Below are positions 5,908 to 23,800 of a stretch of DNA of 26,108 nucleotides, one piece after another. Position numbers and translations under genes: made by a program. Position 1 is the first letter of the stretch; each line of letters starts with the position of its first letter. The stretch lies in the IMG/VR virus record IMGVR_UViG_3300033463_000062, positions 1-26,108 of that record. One strand, 5' to 3'. The notes under the pieces are model-generated. The model worked only from the letters and a program-made list of their open reading frames with translations. It was not told where the DNA came from and ran no database searches. Origin of the DNA: a virus. Lineage: Duplodnaviria; Heunggongvirae; Uroviricota; Caudoviricetes.

Positions 5908-8679
5908 TTGAGTAAATCCGTTTACATTGCAGGACTTGACGCAAAAGACATACACATAGCGAATATGCTCTCGCCGGACAGAGGCTACGACTACCGTGAC
6001 TCTAACGGGCGGCTCAACACCCGTCGCTTTCTGTGCTCTTTGGATTATTCCCTCGACCAAATCAAGCTCAGAGAGATATACGAGAAAGTTTGCCGCAGAA
6101 CGGACTTCTCTTTCCGCATCAACCGCAAGTGGTATTGCACGCAGGTCATAAACGTCACTTTCAAATACAGCGTTTGTGAATTCAACCAGTGCGGGACAAA
6201 CCGCTTCGTAAAGTACGGTCATAACGGACGCAACCTTGCGTTCGAAGACTGCGTTTGCCTGTATAACGGAGAGCTCATCGGAATTCAGCTTGACATGCCC
6301 GTGGCAAATCCTATTTCGCCCGATTTGCTCGGAAGGTATTTCAAGTTTGAAAACGGCGTCTACAAAAAAGCCAGAAGCCCCAAGACCCTCATCAAGACTT
6401 CGGCTTTGCGCAAACAGCTCTACGATAACGGCTTTATGGCAGGCGGGATCCACTACGTCCGTTGGAAGCGTTCGGCAGGAAGCTCCCGTGTTGGCAAGTG
6501 CCTGTTCATCAACGAGCGCCTGTATGACAGGATGCACCGGTGGGAGATGTGCGGCATCCACGTCAAAGAAGGCGATACCATAGACCTTGCGGCTTTGGAG
6601 TCGTACATCAGTCTTACATCGTCTTCGATCATCGACACCCTCGAGTTGGAGCCGAAGAACATTCTCGTTATTGACGATGCTGAATCGTGTTTCACTGAAC
6701 CACAATTCAGTGTGTCGGTGTTCGAGAAAAACGGAAAGCTTCAGGCGGAGAAAGCCGACTGTCAGATAAAGAACAGTATCTGGGACGGGCAAGGCTTTAT
6801 TGACCGCGAAGCAATGGGCAAATACCGTGACCGCGGAATGATATTGCTGCGGAATAAATTCTTTAAAAGCTGCTGCTTCAACTGCAACCTTCAGCAGTTC
6901 TTCGCAGACCACGGCATCACGGAAGTCTCGCAGTTAAACGGATACACTCAGGCGGAGCGCGTAGAAGACATCAAGCTTGTCGTAACCCGCTCCTCAATAA
7001 AGTATTTCAAGTTCGGAACGCTCGAGCAATGGTTGGCTAATCTGGAATTCATCTATGGAATAGTCAAACACGAAAAACCGACGCACTTCTTCGGCGGGCA
7101 AATGGTTCAAACCCACTACCAGCTTTTGAACACCATTCAGATGACAGAGTCCGACGTTTGGCAGTTCCTTAAGCCGACGTTCGACTACGTTGAACTGCTC
7201 AAAACTAACCCCGCGGTGCTCCGCCACCACATCAAATACCCCATTGTCGGAGACGAGGTCGAGTTATCCCCCCTGCAAACGAAAAACGATGTTATATGGA
7301 AGCTTATGGGTATAACGGATAAGTTCACCGAGACGCGCCTGTATAATGAGTTTAAAAATGAGATTATTCGGGCATACTTAAAGAACGTAAGGCTCGGTCA
7401 CGTTCTGGTCAACGGCAATTACTCCACAATGGTCGGCAACCCTCTCGAAATGCTCTACGCAATCATCGGGCAGTTCGACGGGCAGAGTATGCTCGGCGTC
7501 GGCAATATCCACACCAAGTGCTTCGAGTACGGCAAGACGCTTATCGGCTCCCGCAGCCCTCACGTCTCAATGAGCAACGTGTGGCTCCCGCGGAACGTGG
7601 AGTGCGAGGAGCTCGACCGCTACCTCAATATGACGAACGAGATCGTCGCGGTCAACTCAATCGGCGAGAGCACGCTCGACAAGCTCAGCGGATGCGACTT
7701 CGACTCGGACACCGTGCTTCTGACGGACAACGAGTTTTTGATTAAGGCGGCGCAGAAGTGGTACGGCAAGTTCCCTATCGCTCTGAATAACGTCGCGGCG
7801 GTCAAGACCAAGAGAGCCTACACTAACGAGCAGAAAGCCGAGCTCGACATCAAGACCGGTAATAATCTCATCGGAGACATAATCAACCTCAGCCAAGAGC
7901 TCAATACGAGAATTTGGGACGAGCTGAACAGCGGCGCGTCTTTCGACGAGGTGTTCGGTATATACCTTGACGTGTGCAAGCTCAACATAATGTCCTGCCT
8001 TGAGATAGACTCCGCAAAGAAGGAATTCAATATCAGCAACTCCAAAGAGCTTGCGGAGCTCCGCCGTAAGTACGAGTTGTTGGACGACGCGGGCAAAAAG
8101 ATAAAGCCCAACTTCTTCGCAGCGAAAGACAAGGGCAAAGGCTATTACGTTCCGCATAAGAAGAACTATAAGCGCCACGACACCACAATGGACTACCTCG
8201 AGCACTGTGTAAACCGATTCGCCTTACAGTTGTCCCGTAAGTTTAACAGAAAAAACTATACACTATTTTCCGCAATCCTGACGCTCACGGAGTACGACAG
8301 GAACTGCGCGTCAAAGTACGCCGTGCGCAGATGCGTGTCTATCGTGCGCGGAATGCTCGACGCTATCAAGTCTGTGTATTCGTCCAACCTCGACAATCAG
8401 GATAAGTTCAAACTGTATAGCGACATGCGCCAAGACTGCAACGAGTATATCGGCAGAATGAAATTCAACCCCGACACAATGATATACTTTTTAAAGACCA
8501 TAGAGGGCGAGCGGTATAAGAACATCTACAACACGATATTCTACACGCTGTTCGGCTACCCGAATACGATGTTCTACGAGGTCGTATTAAATTCGGCTAA
8601 TCCGATACGCAATCTTATATCTGCCGAAGACGGAGACATCGTCCTGTATGGAAAACGATACAAGGAGGAAATACTATAA
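5908..8679 (+). CDS. yonO: YonO-like single-subunit DNA-dependent RNA polymerase (two-barrel family related to eukaryotic RdRP), 923 aa
   Basis: RSAGSSRVGKCLF, SIWDGQG, GSRSPH and LSGCDFDSD (D597-F-D599-S-D601, nt 7696-7710) catalytic aspartate triad; SPbeta-like synteny with HU, phosphoesterase and head genes; TTG start. Confidence 0.88.
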   Translation: MSKSVYIAGLDAKDIHIANMLSPDRGYDYRDSNGRLNTRRFLCSLDYSLDQIKLREIYEKVCRRTDFSFRINRKWYCTQVINVTFKYSVCEFNQCGTNRFVKYGHNGRNLAFEDCVCLYNGELIGIQLDMPVANPISPDLLGRYFKFENGVYKKARSPKTLIKTSALRKQLYDNGFMAGGIHYVRWKRSAGSSRVGKCLFINERLYDRMHRWEMCGIHVKEGDTIDLAALESYISLTSSSIIDTLELEPKNILVIDDAESCFTEPQFSVSVFEKNGKLQAEKADCQIKNSIWDGQGFIDREAMGKYRDRGMILLRNKFFKSCCFNCNLQQFFADHGITEVSQLNGYTQAERVEDIKLVVTRSSIKYFKFGTLEQWLANLEFIYGIVKHEKPTHFFGGQMVQTHYQLLNTIQMTESDVWQFLKPTFDYVELLKTNPAVLRHHIKYPIVGDEVELSPLQTKNDVIWKLMGITDKFTETRLYNEFKNEIIRAYLKNVRLGHVLVNGNYSTMVGNPLEMLYAIIGQFDGQSMLGVGNIHTKCFEYGKTLIGSRSPHVSMSNVWLPRNVECEELDRYLNMTNEIVAVNSIGESTLDKLSGCDFDSDTVLLTDNEFLIKAAQKWYGKFPIALNNVAAVKTKRAYTNEQKAELDIKTGNNLIGDIINLSQELNTRIWDELNSGASFDEVFGIYLDVCKLNIMSCLEIDSAKKEFNISNSKELAELRRKYELLDDAGKKIKPNFFAAKDKGKGYYVPHKKNYKRHDTTMDYLEHCVNRFALQLSRKFNRKNYTLFSAILTLTEYDRNCASKYAVRRCVSIVRGMLDAIKSVYSSNLDNQDKFKLYSDMRQDCNEYIGRMKFNPDTMIYFLKTIEGERYKNIYNTIFYTLFGYPNTMFYEVVLNSANPIRNLISAEDGDIVLYGKRYKEEIL

Positions 8680-8852
8680 CGGCAAACCGTGATAAAAAAG
8701 AATACTTGGTGGACGACACCAAGTTTGTGGTTAACAGAAAATTCACAAACGGCAACAAAAAATTCGACGTGTATTGCGACTTTATTATAAAAAAGCAAAA
8801 GCGCTTGTGTTATAATGAATGTCGCAAAAGAGTGCCGGAAAGGAGTATATGA
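8676..8852 (+). CDS. small TnpW-like protein (58 aa, probable ATA start)
   Basis: AGGAGG 7 nt before ATA. Reads (M)TANRDKKEYLVDDTKFVVNRKFTNGNKKFDVYCDFIIKKQKRLCYNECRKRVPERSI. Overlaps the RNAP stop (ATAA) and the recombinase start (ATGA). TnpW similarity is a recollection-level match. Confidence 0.55.
   Translation: MTANRDKKEYLVDDTKFVVNRKFTNGNKKFDVYCDFIIKKQKRLCYNECRKRVPERSI
8808..8816 (+). promoter_or_regulatory. extended -10 promoter for the serine recombinase
   Basis: TGT-TATAAT about 30 nt upstream of the ATG; no clear -35. Confidence 0.5.
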
Positions 8853-10504
8853 ACAAATATATCTACGCCGACACATATTCCAGATTGTCAAAAGAAGAAG
8901 CCAACAAAGCTGGCGAATCCCAAAGCATCGAAAACCAAAAGCTGATAATGCGTCAGTATTGCAAGAGCCACAATATTATTATTGTGAAGGAGTTCGTTGA
9001 CGACGGGTACACGGGAGCCACGTTCGACAGACCCGACTTTCAGAATATGCTCAAGCATCTGAACGAAGGCAAAGCGAACGCGGTGATCACGAAAGACCTG
9101 TCTCGGCTCGGGCGTAATGCGAGCGAAGCTTCGTACTACGCGGAGGAGTATTTCCCCGAGCACGATATTCTCTACCTTGCAATATCAGACAACTTCAACA
9201 GCGAGGACGTGAACCCGATGTCGTCATTCCTATTCGCATATAACGAGTTCTTTTTGCGAGACACCTCGAAAAAGATAAAGACCTCGTTAAAGGCGAAAAA
9301 GGAAAATGGCGAATACTGTTGCTGCCCGCCGTATGGTTACATGAAGGACAAAGACAAGCGGGGTCACCTCGTGCCAAATCCCGAAACGGCTCCAGCGGTG
9401 CGACGAGCCTTTCAACTTATATCAAACGGTATGTCCGCAAGGGCGACTGCGATGCAGCTTACGGCAGAAGGCTTCGTCACCCCGTCGGTTTACTTTCTGA
9501 GGAACTCGCCCAAGAAGGCAAAAGCCTCTCCCGACTGGAACTCGACCACCGTGCAGCGAATGATCAAGAACGAAACCTATATCGGAAACACCGTTCTCGG
9601 CAAAAGCTTCAAGGTGAGCTACAAGTCCAAGAAGAAGAAGCAGATCCCCGAGGATGAATACATCCGTCACCCGAACACCCACGTCCCTCTCGTCTCAAGA
9701 GAAGTGTTCGACGCGGCTAACCGCAACATTGGATACAACACGAGAGACTGGAGAAAGAACCCACACCTGCCCGTCAGACAGAATATCTTCAACGGAGTGG
9801 TGTTCTGCAGTAAGTGCGGAAGCGCGATGTGCAGCGGAGGAGGTCAGTACAAAGGCTCGAAAGAGAGATACTGGTATCTGTCCTGTACCCACATCACGAG
9901 CAAGAAGAAACGGTGTGAGGGTGGTGCCCGTATCAAATATTCAAGTCTATGCCAAGTCATAAAGAACGAGTTGAACAGTATCCTCGCTTTGACCGACGAA
10001 GAGATGAAAGACATAACGCGTGCGGCAGTTGAGCGGTCACGTTCCTCCAACGACTATTTCAGCAGCGACGACTACTACGGCTCGTTGCAGAAAAAGTCTG
10101 AGGTGTTGATACAGTCGATGCAGAAGCTGTATAACGACTTGGCGGCGGGAGTCATAACACCCGAGCTCCACAGTTCTTTGATAGAGCGAACGAGAAAAGA
10201 GTATGAGACCTTGCAAGAGCAATTGAGAGAGGGAGAAAGCCACGAAGACCAGGGCGATGACGTCGAGGAAGCGTATAAGAACTTCTTTAGCTTGGTAAAA
10301 AGCACGTCGCAAGTTGAGGAGCTGACCCCCGAACTGATACGCACGTTCATCCAGAGAATTGAGATTGAGCCGAGAGTTTTGCCGCCGGGGTATCAGATTG
10401 CGATGCCGAGCGTCCCTTGCACGCAGACAATCACCATTTATTATAGATTTATAGGAAACTGTGATTTTTCGACCGCTAATTTGTGCGAAATCACCAACGA
10501 CTAA
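8849..10504 (+). CDS. large serine recombinase (resolvase + recombinase + Zn-ribbon + DUF4368-like tail), ~551 aa
   Basis: YSRLS catalytic motif, SIENQK, DDGYTG...DRPDF, KDLSRLGRN, PPYGY, CSKCG Zn ribbon, C-terminal ITIYYRFIG. Start moved to ATG 8849 (AAAGGAG RBS). Confidence 0.93.
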   Translation: MNKYIYADTYSRLSKEEANKAGESQSIENQKLIMRQYCKSHNIIIVKEFVDDGYTGATFDRPDFQNMLKHLNEGKANAVITKDLSRLGRNASEASYYAEEYFPEHDILYLAISDNFNSEDVNPMSSFLFAYNEFFLRDTSKKIKTSLKAKKENGEYCCCPPYGYMKDKDKRGHLVPNPETAPAVRRAFQLISNGMSARATAMQLTAEGFVTPSVYFLRNSPKKAKASPDWNSTTVQRMIKNETYIGNTVLGKSFKVSYKSKKKKQIPEDEYIRHPNTHVPLVSREVFDAANRNIGYNTRDWRKNPHLPVRQNIFNGVVFCSKCGSAMCSGGGQYKGSKERYWYLSCTHITSKKKRCEGGARIKYSSLCQVIKNELNSILALTDEEMKDITRAAVERSRSSNDYFSSDDYYGSLQKKSEVLIQSMQKLYNDLAAGVITPELHSSLIERTRKEYETLQEQLREGESHEDQGDDVEEAYKNFFSLVKSTSQVEELTPELIRTFIQRIEIEPRVLPPGYQIAMPSVPCTQTITIYYRFIGNCDFSTANLCEITND

Positions 10505-10579
10505 ATGTAATTCGACATCCATTGACCTTGATGTGAAACATCATCTAAAAGAAAGGCACTCTTTTGCATTATATTGTAT

Positions 10580-10600
10580 GAGCCAAAGGCTCTTTTTTTT
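10580..10600 (+). terminator. intrinsic terminator after the recombinase
   Basis: GAGCC-aaa-GGCTC plus T8. Confidence 0.6.
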
Positions 10601-10603
10601 ATG

Positions 10604-11084
10604 CAAAAATTTACAAAAAAGAGGGCATTTTTATCCCCCGCTTTTGAGAACTTGGCTTAAATACTGGGGATTGAGGGTAATTTGGGATGGACTATAGGAG
10701 AGGATAGTCAACTCGGTCGGAACGGAGACCTTAAACCCGTTTCCAACGGGTTTGCGATGAAGCGAATGACGGGGTCGGTATCCGCACGGGCGCAGAGCTT
10801 TGTATAGGGTTAGAGAGTATCCGCAGACCGACTTAGGCGAAAGCCGAAAGAAAACTTTCAAAGTGCCATTTTAAAAAGTGCCGGTGGTGGCGAATCTCCC
10901 CTCCTGCCGTGTCATCACCTCCCACACGGTTGCCACCACTTGCACCCTTTCACTTTAGCACGCTAAAGTGGCACGACTCAAAAATTTACAAAAAATGACC
11001 CTTTTTTATCCCCACCATTTCGCAACTTGGCTTATTTGCTGGGGTTTGATGGTTATTCGGGATGGACTATAGGAAGAGTAGTCA
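10604..11084 (+). repeat. ~106-bp imperfect direct repeat x2 (10604-10710, 10979-11084)
   Basis: Identical blocks CAAAAATTTACAAAAAA, TTTTTATCCCC, AACTTGGCTTA, CTGGGG, GGGATGGACTATAGGA and TAGTCA, separated by variable spacers of almost equal length. Confidence 0.92.
10711..10978 (+). ncRNA. candidate structured RNA between the repeats
   Basis: Stems AAACCCGTT/AACGGGTTT, GGGTCGGT/ACCGACTT, GGC-GAAA-GCC, a 16-bp stem 10878-10893/10930-10945, and CCGTGT/ACACGG; G-U pairs favour the plus strand. Confidence 0.55.
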
Positions 11085-11237
11085 CGAATTGACAATATTT
11101 GACATTAGTCGGGTCTCGGTGTTATCGGGATCGCGTCAAGGGAAGAGGGAAAGAAATTTTGATTGGGCGAATCAAAATTTCTTTGAAAGCGGCAAGCCGC
11201 ATGGAATTCGTGCTAATCAAAAATAAAATTTAAGGGA

Positions 11238-11426
11238 GTGATAAGTATAATTCAAATCACAAAAGAGGAAAGCTTGAAAATGAGGGAACGCTTTCCGAAA
11301 GTATCAATTACGATTACAAGCAGACAGACGAGTCACAAAAAGTATTATATGGAGGAAGCGTCCGTCTATGTCAAGTATCTGAATAAAATGCGTGAAGAGG
11401 AGATGAAGACGTGGACGAAGAAATAA
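11238..11426 (+). CDS. small phage protein (62 aa)
   Basis: AAGGGAG RBS, GTG start, overlaps the next gene; first gene of the late operon. Confidence 0.7.
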   Translation: MISIIQITKEESLKMRERFPKVSITITSRQTSHKKYYMEEASVYVKYLNKMREEEMKTWTKK

Positions 11427-22786: not shown

Positions 22787-23800
22787 ATGGCGTTAGATGG
22801 TATAGCATACTATAAAGCCATACAAGGCTCATTAGGGGTGGATTCTCTCGTTCAGAACGAGATACGCTCGTCGCAGGCGTGGATGCGCGACGAGCTTGTT
22901 CAGTCGTTAAACTACGACGAATTGACCGCAACGCGTAACGGCATCCAGCAAGGCTTTCTCGTAACTACTACTGAATATGGGTTTCAGGCTCAGGTCAGAG
23001 CGCTTCCCGGAGACGAATTGTATATCGGTGATATAATCGGTTTCCGTGGCGAGTATTGGATTGTCACGGACTTAACGCCCGTCAACCCGTTCTACAGACT
23101 GGGCATTATGAAGCTTTGCAATTACGTATTGCGTTTCCAGAACTTCTCGCCGACTATCTATGAACGCCATGTATTTATTGACGGCGGTGCTTATGCAACC
23201 TACGTTAAAGGCGACACAAGGATTCAGTACGGCAACGAGAAGGCATCTATATATTTGCCTTATGACGACGCTACGAAGAAGTTGTTTATAGACAAACGAA
23301 TCAGCGTTGGAACATTGTGGGATAAGACTAACAGGGCTATTCTGCAGTGCAACAAAATCATAGGTGTCGACTACAGAAGCGTCTCGCGTGGCGAGGGCGC
23401 TCACCTTATGCTTCTCCATATTGAACAGGATGCGTACTCTCCCGAAAAAGACAATATGGAACTTGACCTGTGCGACTATATTACTGTATCGTCGGACACT
23501 TCAACTGAAGGTGTCGACAACAAGAGTTGTCAAATAGCGGGTATCCCGCGCCTTATGACCGGCTTCAGCAGAACGCTGACCGCAAAATTCTTCCAAGCTG
23601 ATGACTTGGTTGAAAACATTCAGGCTGTATGGTCTGTATCGGAACTGCCCGAGGGCATAACGTATCGCATAGAGGGCGACGGAATAATATTCCGCTGCGC
23701 CGACAAACCTGAACTCATAGGCGAGAGCTTCACCGTTGAACTAACTGACAGTCTGAATCAGTACGGCACATATACGGTCACAATGGAGGTGGTGTCATGA
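22787..23800 (+). CDS. putative head closure/neck protein with beta-rich C-terminus (337 aa)
   Basis: Abuts the previous stop; LYIGDIIGFRGEYWIV resembles head-closure folds; position. Confidence 0.55.
   Translation: MALDGIAYYKAIQGSLGVDSLVQNEIRSSQAWMRDELVQSLNYDELTATRNGIQQGFLVTTTEYGFQAQVRALPGDELYIGDIIGFRGEYWIVTDLTPVNPFYRLGIMKLCNYVLRFQNFSPTIYERHVFIDGGAYATYVKGDTRIQYGNEKASIYLPYDDATKKLFIDKRISVGTLWDKTNRAILQCNKIIGVDYRSVSRGEGAHLMLLHIEQDAYSPEKDNMELDLCDYITVSSDTSTEGVDNKSCQIAGIPRLMTGFSRTLTAKFFQADDLVENIQAVWSVSELPEGITYRIEGDGIIFRCADKPELIGESFTVELTDSLNQYGTYTVTMEVVS

Follow-up and report, generated by a model that had tools for sequence, protein, structure and literature searches.

The segment at 10863-10974 of this phage genome is very probably a plus-strand structured RNA. 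It directly follows a full-length drum RNA, and it carries two C-rich, anti-Shine-Dalgarno-like segments that folding predicts to be open; the RNA as a whole is probably expressed late. It is best filed as a drum transcription unit in which the terminator has been replaced by a loop-displaying domain, comparable to the small RNAs with C-rich loops and belonging to no described family. As a tentative explanation, to which we give somewhat less than an even chance, we propose that drum and the domain share one late plus-strand RNA, of which the domain forms the 3' module, and that the domain caps or ends this RNA in the place of a terminator and presents its two loops to GGAGG-type tracts. The complete transcript would be a non-coding RNA of ~280 nt, expressed late from the plus strand and consisting of a 5' hairpin, drum and the Y-shaped domain. 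Together with its own copy of a late element, this unit forms a 375-nt cassette, which an SPbeta-like Clostridia phage of the gut carries as an insert ahead of its normal late element. Copy A of the late element would drive both the drum RNA and the flagged domain, and the domain itself would most likely serve, through its very stable fold, to end or protect the drum RNA on its 3' side, where a rho-independent terminator would otherwise stand. The two CCUCC motifs, kept single-stranded, would be able to pair with GGAGG-type purine tracts, which might lie in the mRNAs of host or phage, as ribosome-binding sites, or within the transcript itself, as the AGGAGAGG at its 5' end. By analogy, such pairing may follow the mode of the C-rich loops of RsaE/RoxS, RNAIII and the Cuckoo small RNAs.

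The window (the whole stretch of DNA that was analysed, 26,108 nt) covers the initial 26 kb of an IMG/VR virus record that is 90 kb long. Within it, the domain lies in a gap of 733 nt (10505-11237) between a large serine recombinase gene and a block of plus-strand genes. Pfam finds YonJ_N, YonG_N and YonD_N among the genes 3' of the gap, and the phage is therefore SPbeta-like; its relatives are found in Oscillospiraceae/Clostridiales assemblies, and the YonO-like polymerase has thousands of relatives in gut metagenomes. A classical intrinsic terminator closes the operon of polymerase and recombinase 3 nt ahead of copy A of the late element. No tRNA or tmRNA was found in the window with ARAGORN. 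The features discussed here are collected in the following table.

Features of the late leader region, with the elements of other phages to which they are compared (positions without a prefix are those of the window)
Feature	Position	Strand	Basis or context
YonO-like single-subunit RNA polymerase	5908-8679		weak Pfam RdRP match
Large serine recombinase	8819-10504		flanking genes all on the + strand
Classical intrinsic terminator, GAGCC-AAA-GGCTC then T8	10580-10601	+	terminator scan and sequence
Late element copy A, candidate promoter/leader for the YonO-like RNA polymerase	10604-10710	+	80% identical to copy B
5' hairpin AAACCCGUU-UCC-AACGGGUUU, directly before the drum core	10733-10753	+	sequence; comparison with L051, L052 and L054
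Drum RNA, Rfam RF02958, full length	10752-10862	+	65 bits against a gathering score of 43, E 2.8e-10
Y-shaped 3' domain: closing helix GUGCC/GGCAC, long stem, 13-nt bulge, apical hairpin, second hairpin	10863-10974	+	folding and pair lists
Competing helix GTGCCATTTTA/TAAAGTGGCAC	10863-10873/10964-10974	+	11 bp
Long stem	10878-10893/10930-10945	+	16 positions
C-rich motif CCCCTCCT (RNA CCCCUCCU)	10898-10905	+	within the 13-nt bulge
Apical hairpin CCGTGT/ACACGG	10907-10912/10924-10929	+
Apical loop CATCACCTCCC (RNA CAUCACCUCCC)	10913-10923	+	contains ATCACCTCC at 10914-10922
Hairpin 2, CACTTTAG-cacg-CTAAAGTG (RNA CACUUUAG-CACG-CUAAAGUG)	10951-10958/10963-10970	+
Late element copy B	10979-11084	+	upstream of YonK-like and YonJ-like late genes; repeat comparison and relatives
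YonK-like small gene, first in the late block	11238-11426	+	tblastn to L007
Homologous late element in relatives	L203:9695-9850, L205:4990-5140, L201:9780-9925
DUF3800-VIII RNA in SPbeta	L178:19410-19475 = AF020713 59409-59474	-	inside the ~1.3-kb YonO-transcribed leader
SPbeta 125-nt domain	L178:19190-19310	-	nearest yonK
~95-nt Bacillus-phage ACCUCCUUACACGGG element (alignment A3)	L178:19902-20009 (-), L183:136-244, L184:136-245

About 110 nt of what the initial annotation had described as an RNA of ~270 nt belong to the known Rfam family drum, whose covariance model matches over its entire length (positions 1-112 of 112). The match ends at 10862, one base before the domain, which lies wholly outside it and is a neighbour of drum, not a member of the family. 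The hairpin on the 5' side of the drum core matches the position of the 5' hairpin in three bacterial drum genes (L051, L052 and L054) that have this hairpin and one promoter region in common. To place the 3' side we drew on 30 other drum loci, five from Clostridia genomes and 25 from viral contigs. A terminator stands directly 3' of drum in 11 of them (five bacterial, six viral), and the remaining loci hold mostly tRNAs (five cases) or other structured RNA at this position, or a new promoter. All five Clostridia loci have a GC hairpin and a T-run immediately 3' of drum, and upstream of it a sigma-A promoter is present in all but one. It is this terminator position of ordinary drum genes that the domain occupies. 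The domain does not recur 3' of drum in any of the five bacterial and 25 viral loci, and CCTCC is absent from the 120 nt downstream of drum in all 25 viral loci (the five bacterial flanks were read by eye).

The arrangement resembles that of described drum transcription units (RF02958; Weinberg et al. 2017, PMC5737381) in its succession of promoter-like element, 5' hairpin, drum core and strong hairpin directly 3', but the 3' hairpin here lacks a U-tract, is ~110 nt long and branched, and contains two CCUCC motifs, with nothing similar at the 30 other loci. The partner gene also differs: a gene for a PBECR4 nuclease (PF18813), the usual partner, lies just downstream of drum in two of the five bacterial and four of the 25 viral loci, whereas a search of the 90-kb record found no PBECR4, and drum here is a lone copy. 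Like rho-independent terminators, the domain provides a small-RNA gene with a GC-rich helix at its 3' end. However, a scan for such terminators on the plus strand did not call it, and its GC-rich stem encloses 36 nt with a second hairpin of its own and a 13-nt bulge in place of a terminator-type short loop. Furthermore, CCCUUUCACUUUAG follows the long stem and GACUCAAAAAUUUAC the closing helix, leaving no U-tract on the plus strand, and the domain is therefore not a canonical terminator.

The helices that had been proposed from the letters of the sequence were all recovered by folding. Thirteen Watson-Crick pairs, two G-U pairs and one C-U mismatch make up the 16 positions of the long stem, the apical hairpin and hairpin 2 are both present, and the competing 11-bp helix, which would enclose the domain, comprises ten Watson-Crick pairs and one U-G pair. 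The first C-rich motif is also as described, and the "internal loop" that was said to hold it is a 13-nt bulge, on the 5' side only, in one long helix, since G10906 pairs with U10930 in the minimum-energy fold. Nine bases of the apical loop match the 3' tail of 16S rRNA, as previously stated, where the tail is the textbook one and not that of the host's own 16S. The plus strand folds with a minimum free energy of -44.2 kcal/mol, compared with -25.5 +/- 3.0 kcal/mol in 200 dinucleotide shuffles, none of which was as good (z -6.25); these fold statistics are strong. The two closing folds are nearly isoenergetic, at -44.2 and -43.3 kcal/mol (0.9 apart). Both C-rich motifs are predicted to be unpaired with a probability of 0.99-1.0 (0.99 for the bulge, 1.0 for the apical loop) in five folding contexts of 113 to 637 nt, which included the domain alone, the domain with drum, the sequence from the putative start site and the whole 637-nt gap. 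The preference for the plus strand, claimed initially from the G-U pairs, is borne out by three observations: the abutting drum RNA is on this strand, the flanking genes are all on it, and the non-Watson-Crick positions of the helices are G-U on the plus strand but A-C on the minus strand.

The counts of the motifs themselves are less decisive than the fold. The nine-base match to the 16S tail, ATCACCTCC, occurs once in the 90-kb genome, where about 0.2-0.3 occurrences are expected. On its sense strand, the plus-strand gene block 5908-26700 has fewer copies of CCTCC than expected (three observed, ~7 expected), and two of these three fall in the domain, 18 nt apart. When two strands and ~225 windows are counted, such a pair in one C-rich stretch of 116 nt goes only mildly beyond chance, and the motif statistics, taken post hoc over the 26-kb window, are suggestive, not compelling.

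Searches for relatives of the domain returned a single further copy, on the Logan contig L176, which is 100% identical over 10.5 kb. No homologue was found by blastn of the gap (736 nt in this search) against 50,697 phage records, or against the loci of 16 relatives and five further loci, nor on contigs anchored by the YonJ-like protein (metagenome) or the recombinase (viral). The loop pattern CCCCTCCT..CATCACCTCC gave 29 matches in viral contigs, all unrelated and apparently coding, while the hairpin pattern CCGTGT..ACCTCC..ACACGG gave 12, most of them under long open reading frames and none of them a relative. Rfam matched no family over 10863-10975 even at E up to 5, and the nearest YonO relatives (74% and 57-59%) have neither drum nor such a domain. 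A 16S-tail-like 7-mer is found in the late leader of none of the relatives' 18 YonO-phage loci. Because the motif is absent from these 18 leaders and from the 25 viral drum flanks, it is not a general property of drum RNAs or of YonO leaders.

The late element that precedes the unit is ~100 nt long and occurs in only two copies, A and B, in the 90-kb genome, with copy B starting 4 nt beyond the end of the domain. Three phages whose YonO is 57-59% identical (L201, L203 and L205) hold a single homologous element right after YonO and before their yonK/yonJ homologues, with an invariant AAAAYTTACAAAAAA, a CCCC...GGGG hairpin and a purine-rich tract resembling TAGGAGAGG; these relatives with a single element have no cassette. 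Copy B is therefore the ancestral one, and copy A with the 5' hairpin, drum and the domain (10604-10978, 375 nt) is accordingly an inserted, duplicated cassette. The element itself looks like a YonO-type late promoter or leader, a candidate reading based on its position in the relatives and on a weak likeness to the mapped YonO start site of SPbeta: the start site GGAT[A]ATAG weakly resembles GGACTATAG of the late element, and what the two share is limited to GGAT-A-ATAG against GGAC-T-ATAG. The homologous element was seen only in the closer L201, L203 and L205, and the 9-mers that the repeats share with the loci of a first set of relatives were noise. As a conserved stretch of ~100 nt, the element provides a concrete candidate for a YonO-type promoter. 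The earlier suggestion of a late RNA gains from this, in that the domain lies behind a conserved element that looks like a late promoter or leader, and the RNA is probably late. Transcription from copy A in particular is what we infer.

A comparable arrangement is seen in the late-operon leader of the Bacillus phage SPbeta, which is transcribed by YonO (PMC5467207). From the yomD-bhlB coordinates (PMC8270828) and the phage record, we placed the SPbeta start at position 60451 of AF020713, which makes the leader ~1.3 kb long. Between yonN and yonK, SPbeta carries an Rfam DUF3800-VIII RNA, detected at 47.5 bits against a gathering score of 40.2, and the 'unannotated non-coding RNA' that Forrest et al. 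2017 mention is probably this one. According to Weinberg et al. (PMC5737381), the genes that accompany DUF3800 RNAs may be related to those found with drum RNAs. Over the 125 nt closest to yonK, SPbeta, SPbetaL1, Goe11 and SPR differ by no more than one substitution and one 1-nt indel, while the flanks vary. This SPbeta domain is predicted to have a closing helix CUCCUUCGG/CCGAAGGAG and to expose UCAUCUCCUUUAUAUCCCCUU. The two leaders are thus alike in being non-coding, in standing directly upstream of a yonK homologue, in containing a structured RNA (DUF3800-VIII there, drum here) and in placing after it a folded domain with exposed anti-Shine-Dalgarno-like pyrimidine motifs. They nevertheless have no sequence homology, the SPbeta leader is ~1.3 kb long, and its motifs are CUCCUU(U) where those here are CCUCC. 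Both leaders show an excess of 16S-tail-like 6-mers on their sense strand (shuffle P 0.006 in SPbeta and 0.02 here), although, with two phages and a post-hoc motif count, the parallel is a lead and not proof. Independently of any role of the loops, drum-class and DUF3800-class RNAs are placed in this way in the leaders of YonO-transcribed late operons.

A resemblance of another kind was seen in a ~95-nt element common to Spbetaviruses and Herelleviridae Bacillus phages (000TH008, SIOphi, Yucatan and KKP_4047). Two helices of this element are backed by compensatory changes, the helix that closes its loop by four compensatory pairs, and the 27-nt loop UACCUCCUUACACGGGUC.G.GAAAAC is invariant save for two positions. 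Rfam does not match the element, and the annotation of some records runs hypothetical CDSs through it. Its loop UACCUCCUUACACGGGUC resembles the local ACCUCCCACACGG, the shared string being only ACCUCC-N-ACACGG. A covariance model built from seven copies (R1) gave no match at 10860-10975 with the filters off and E up to 10, and homology was rejected in favour of resemblance only.

RsaE/RoxS and the hairpins of S. aureus RNAIII, both from Gram-positive bacteria, and the Cuckoo/alpha-r14 RNAs pair with ribosome-binding sites through C-rich loops. The domain is like them in forming stable hairpins whose C-rich, anti-Shine-Dalgarno-like loops are single-stranded (here by prediction), and differs in having no Rfam match, in being joined to drum, and in being encoded by a phage, within a late leader. 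Among the candidate partners, the most stable predicted duplex is with CAGGAGGGGA, which stands ahead of a 104-aa gene at about 64.5 kb (-21.2 kcal/mol), followed by one with the Shine-Dalgarno sequence of the gene at 23797 (-17.8 kcal/mol). The yonK-like start region GGGAGUGAU, which is near-complementary to the apical loop, reaches -12.8 kcal/mol, and AGGAGAGG in the 5' leader, at the predicted 5' end of the same transcript, reaches -12.3 kcal/mol. These targets prove nothing in themselves, because any CCUCC pairs with any Shine-Dalgarno sequence, and any base-pairing function is inferred. The initial annotation had considered that the RNA could sequester the ribosome-binding sites of host or early mRNAs. 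Shine-Dalgarno strength does not differ between the late and the minus-strand (early) genes (p = 0.42), so no selective early target is evident, and selective targeting of early mRNAs through stronger Shine-Dalgarno sequences was rejected.

The main rival to a loop-presenting 3' module is a purely structural 3' element. Such a hairpin would stand in for the drum terminator, where it would confer stability, serve in processing or insulate two tandem late promoters from each other, and CCUCC would be incidental. We consider this somewhat less likely. In its favour, the domain stands where 11 of the 30 other drum loci hold a terminator, its long helix is very stable, copy B of the late element begins immediately beyond it, the motif was found in no other drum or YonO leader examined, and the excess of CCTCC is modest. 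What it leaves aside is that 13 and 11 nucleotides stay unpaired where the helix would otherwise run on unbroken, a feature superfluous in a hairpin meant for stability, that the same pentamer, otherwise rare on the sense strand, lies in both open segments, and that the missing U-tract does not suit a canonical terminator. The distinction matters for how the RNA is regarded. If the loops are functional, one RNA from the late promoter of the phage polymerase would join drum, elsewhere paired with PBECR4, to the RNAs with anti-Shine-Dalgarno loops in a testable setting; if they are incidental, the domain would be an ordinary stable 3' hairpin of a known RNA. A role as a cis switch for the late operon seems improbable to us. 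Here the two folds, or pairing of a loop with AGGAGAGG or GGGAGUGAU, would set how much transcription reads through into copy B or how strongly the first late gene is translated, and both the near-equal energies of the folds (-44.2 and -43.3 kcal/mol) and the duplexes with the 5' leader and the yonK-like start region are in keeping with it. So is an observation made by eye in the relatives, where the leader opens with a purine tract that pairs with pyrimidines farther downstream, in sequences that differ from phage to phage (GGAGAG/CUCUCC in L205, AAGAGGC/GCCUCUU in L201). Nonetheless, no terminator or other decision point follows the alternative helices, the yonK-like start is >300 nt downstream and past a second promoter-like element, and the duplex energies are ordinary beside the best matches in the genome. 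Slightly less improbable, and still well short of the 3' module that we favour, is a two-part late counter-measure RNA, in which the lone drum would act as an antidote or decoy for host PBECR4-type RNases and would be fused to a mimic of the 16S 3' tail that is displayed twice. Such a mimic might soak up Shine-Dalgarno sequences and so re-programme translation, or might decoy a factor that recognises the anti-Shine-Dalgarno tail, and the domain of the SPbeta late leader would be its functional analogue.

Two further readings place the feature on the other strand or in the DNA itself. A leftward small RNA or terminator with GGAGG loops (Shine-Dalgarno-like or CsrA-like), or a set of minus-strand mini-ORFs, is about as doubtful as the cis switch. 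The minus strand does have UUUUU (10873-10869) after the long stem, its fold is also stable (-48.4 kcal/mol, z -4.4), and a sigma-70-like site, TTGTCA-18-TATAGT at 11095-11066, is directed at the domain. Such sites, however, occur at chance frequency (two found, 1.6 expected), three helix positions become A-C mismatches on this strand, and a minus-strand RNA would be antisense to drum with no minus-strand gene nearby. Its GGAGG motifs lack a properly spaced start, as had been pointed out before, with only an ATG after 2 nt and an ATT after 4 nt. Very improbable, finally, is a site acting at the level of DNA, whether the attP of the serine recombinase, another protein-binding palindrome or an extruded hairpin promoter. 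A long inverted repeat 360 bp from a large serine recombinase gene invites this reading, and the G-U pairs, which indicate RNA, speak against it. Serine-integrase att sites have a dyad of roughly 50 bp, whereas here 36 bp separate the arms and the inner repeat does not lie in the centre. In L177 (1867-1997), which carries a 71% relative of the recombinase, a truncated SASP gene, that is host DNA, lies on the opposite strand no more than 31 nt after the recombinase stop, which should put the att site at about 10505-10600 in the present phage. An attP identity of the domain was thus rejected on both position and geometry, and the same junction points to a small acid-soluble spore protein gene as the probable place of integration, with att right after the recombinase stop.

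The slot after YonO is an exchangeable integration module, which holds a Tn916-type Xis and a tyrosine integrase in the 74% relatives (L055:3889-5409, L056:3266-4468) and a serine recombinase in the present phage. Several contigs of relatives (the ends of L201, L203 and L205) stop ~115 nt after an integrase gene. In other relatives, ROOL RNA, tmRNA and long tRNA arrays follow an HU-like gene (L016:11119-12457, L018:11290-11894 and others); exact synteny with these islands was rejected, since they sit after the HU gene and not before the yonK homologue, and at the position after the HU-like gene the window has a tyrosine-integrase-like gene in their place. Between copy B of the late element and the yonK-like gene lies a 15-bp perfect inverted repeat with a 5-nt spacer (AAAGAAATTTTGATT-GGGCG-AATCAAAATTTCTTT, 11150-11184). 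The start region of the yonK-like gene is odd yet conserved (11225-11250 in the window; L203, L205, L201 and L007), with AAGGA or GGGAG touching ATG, GTG or TTG and almost no spacer between them, and in some relatives the similarity at the protein level extends upstream of any canonical start.
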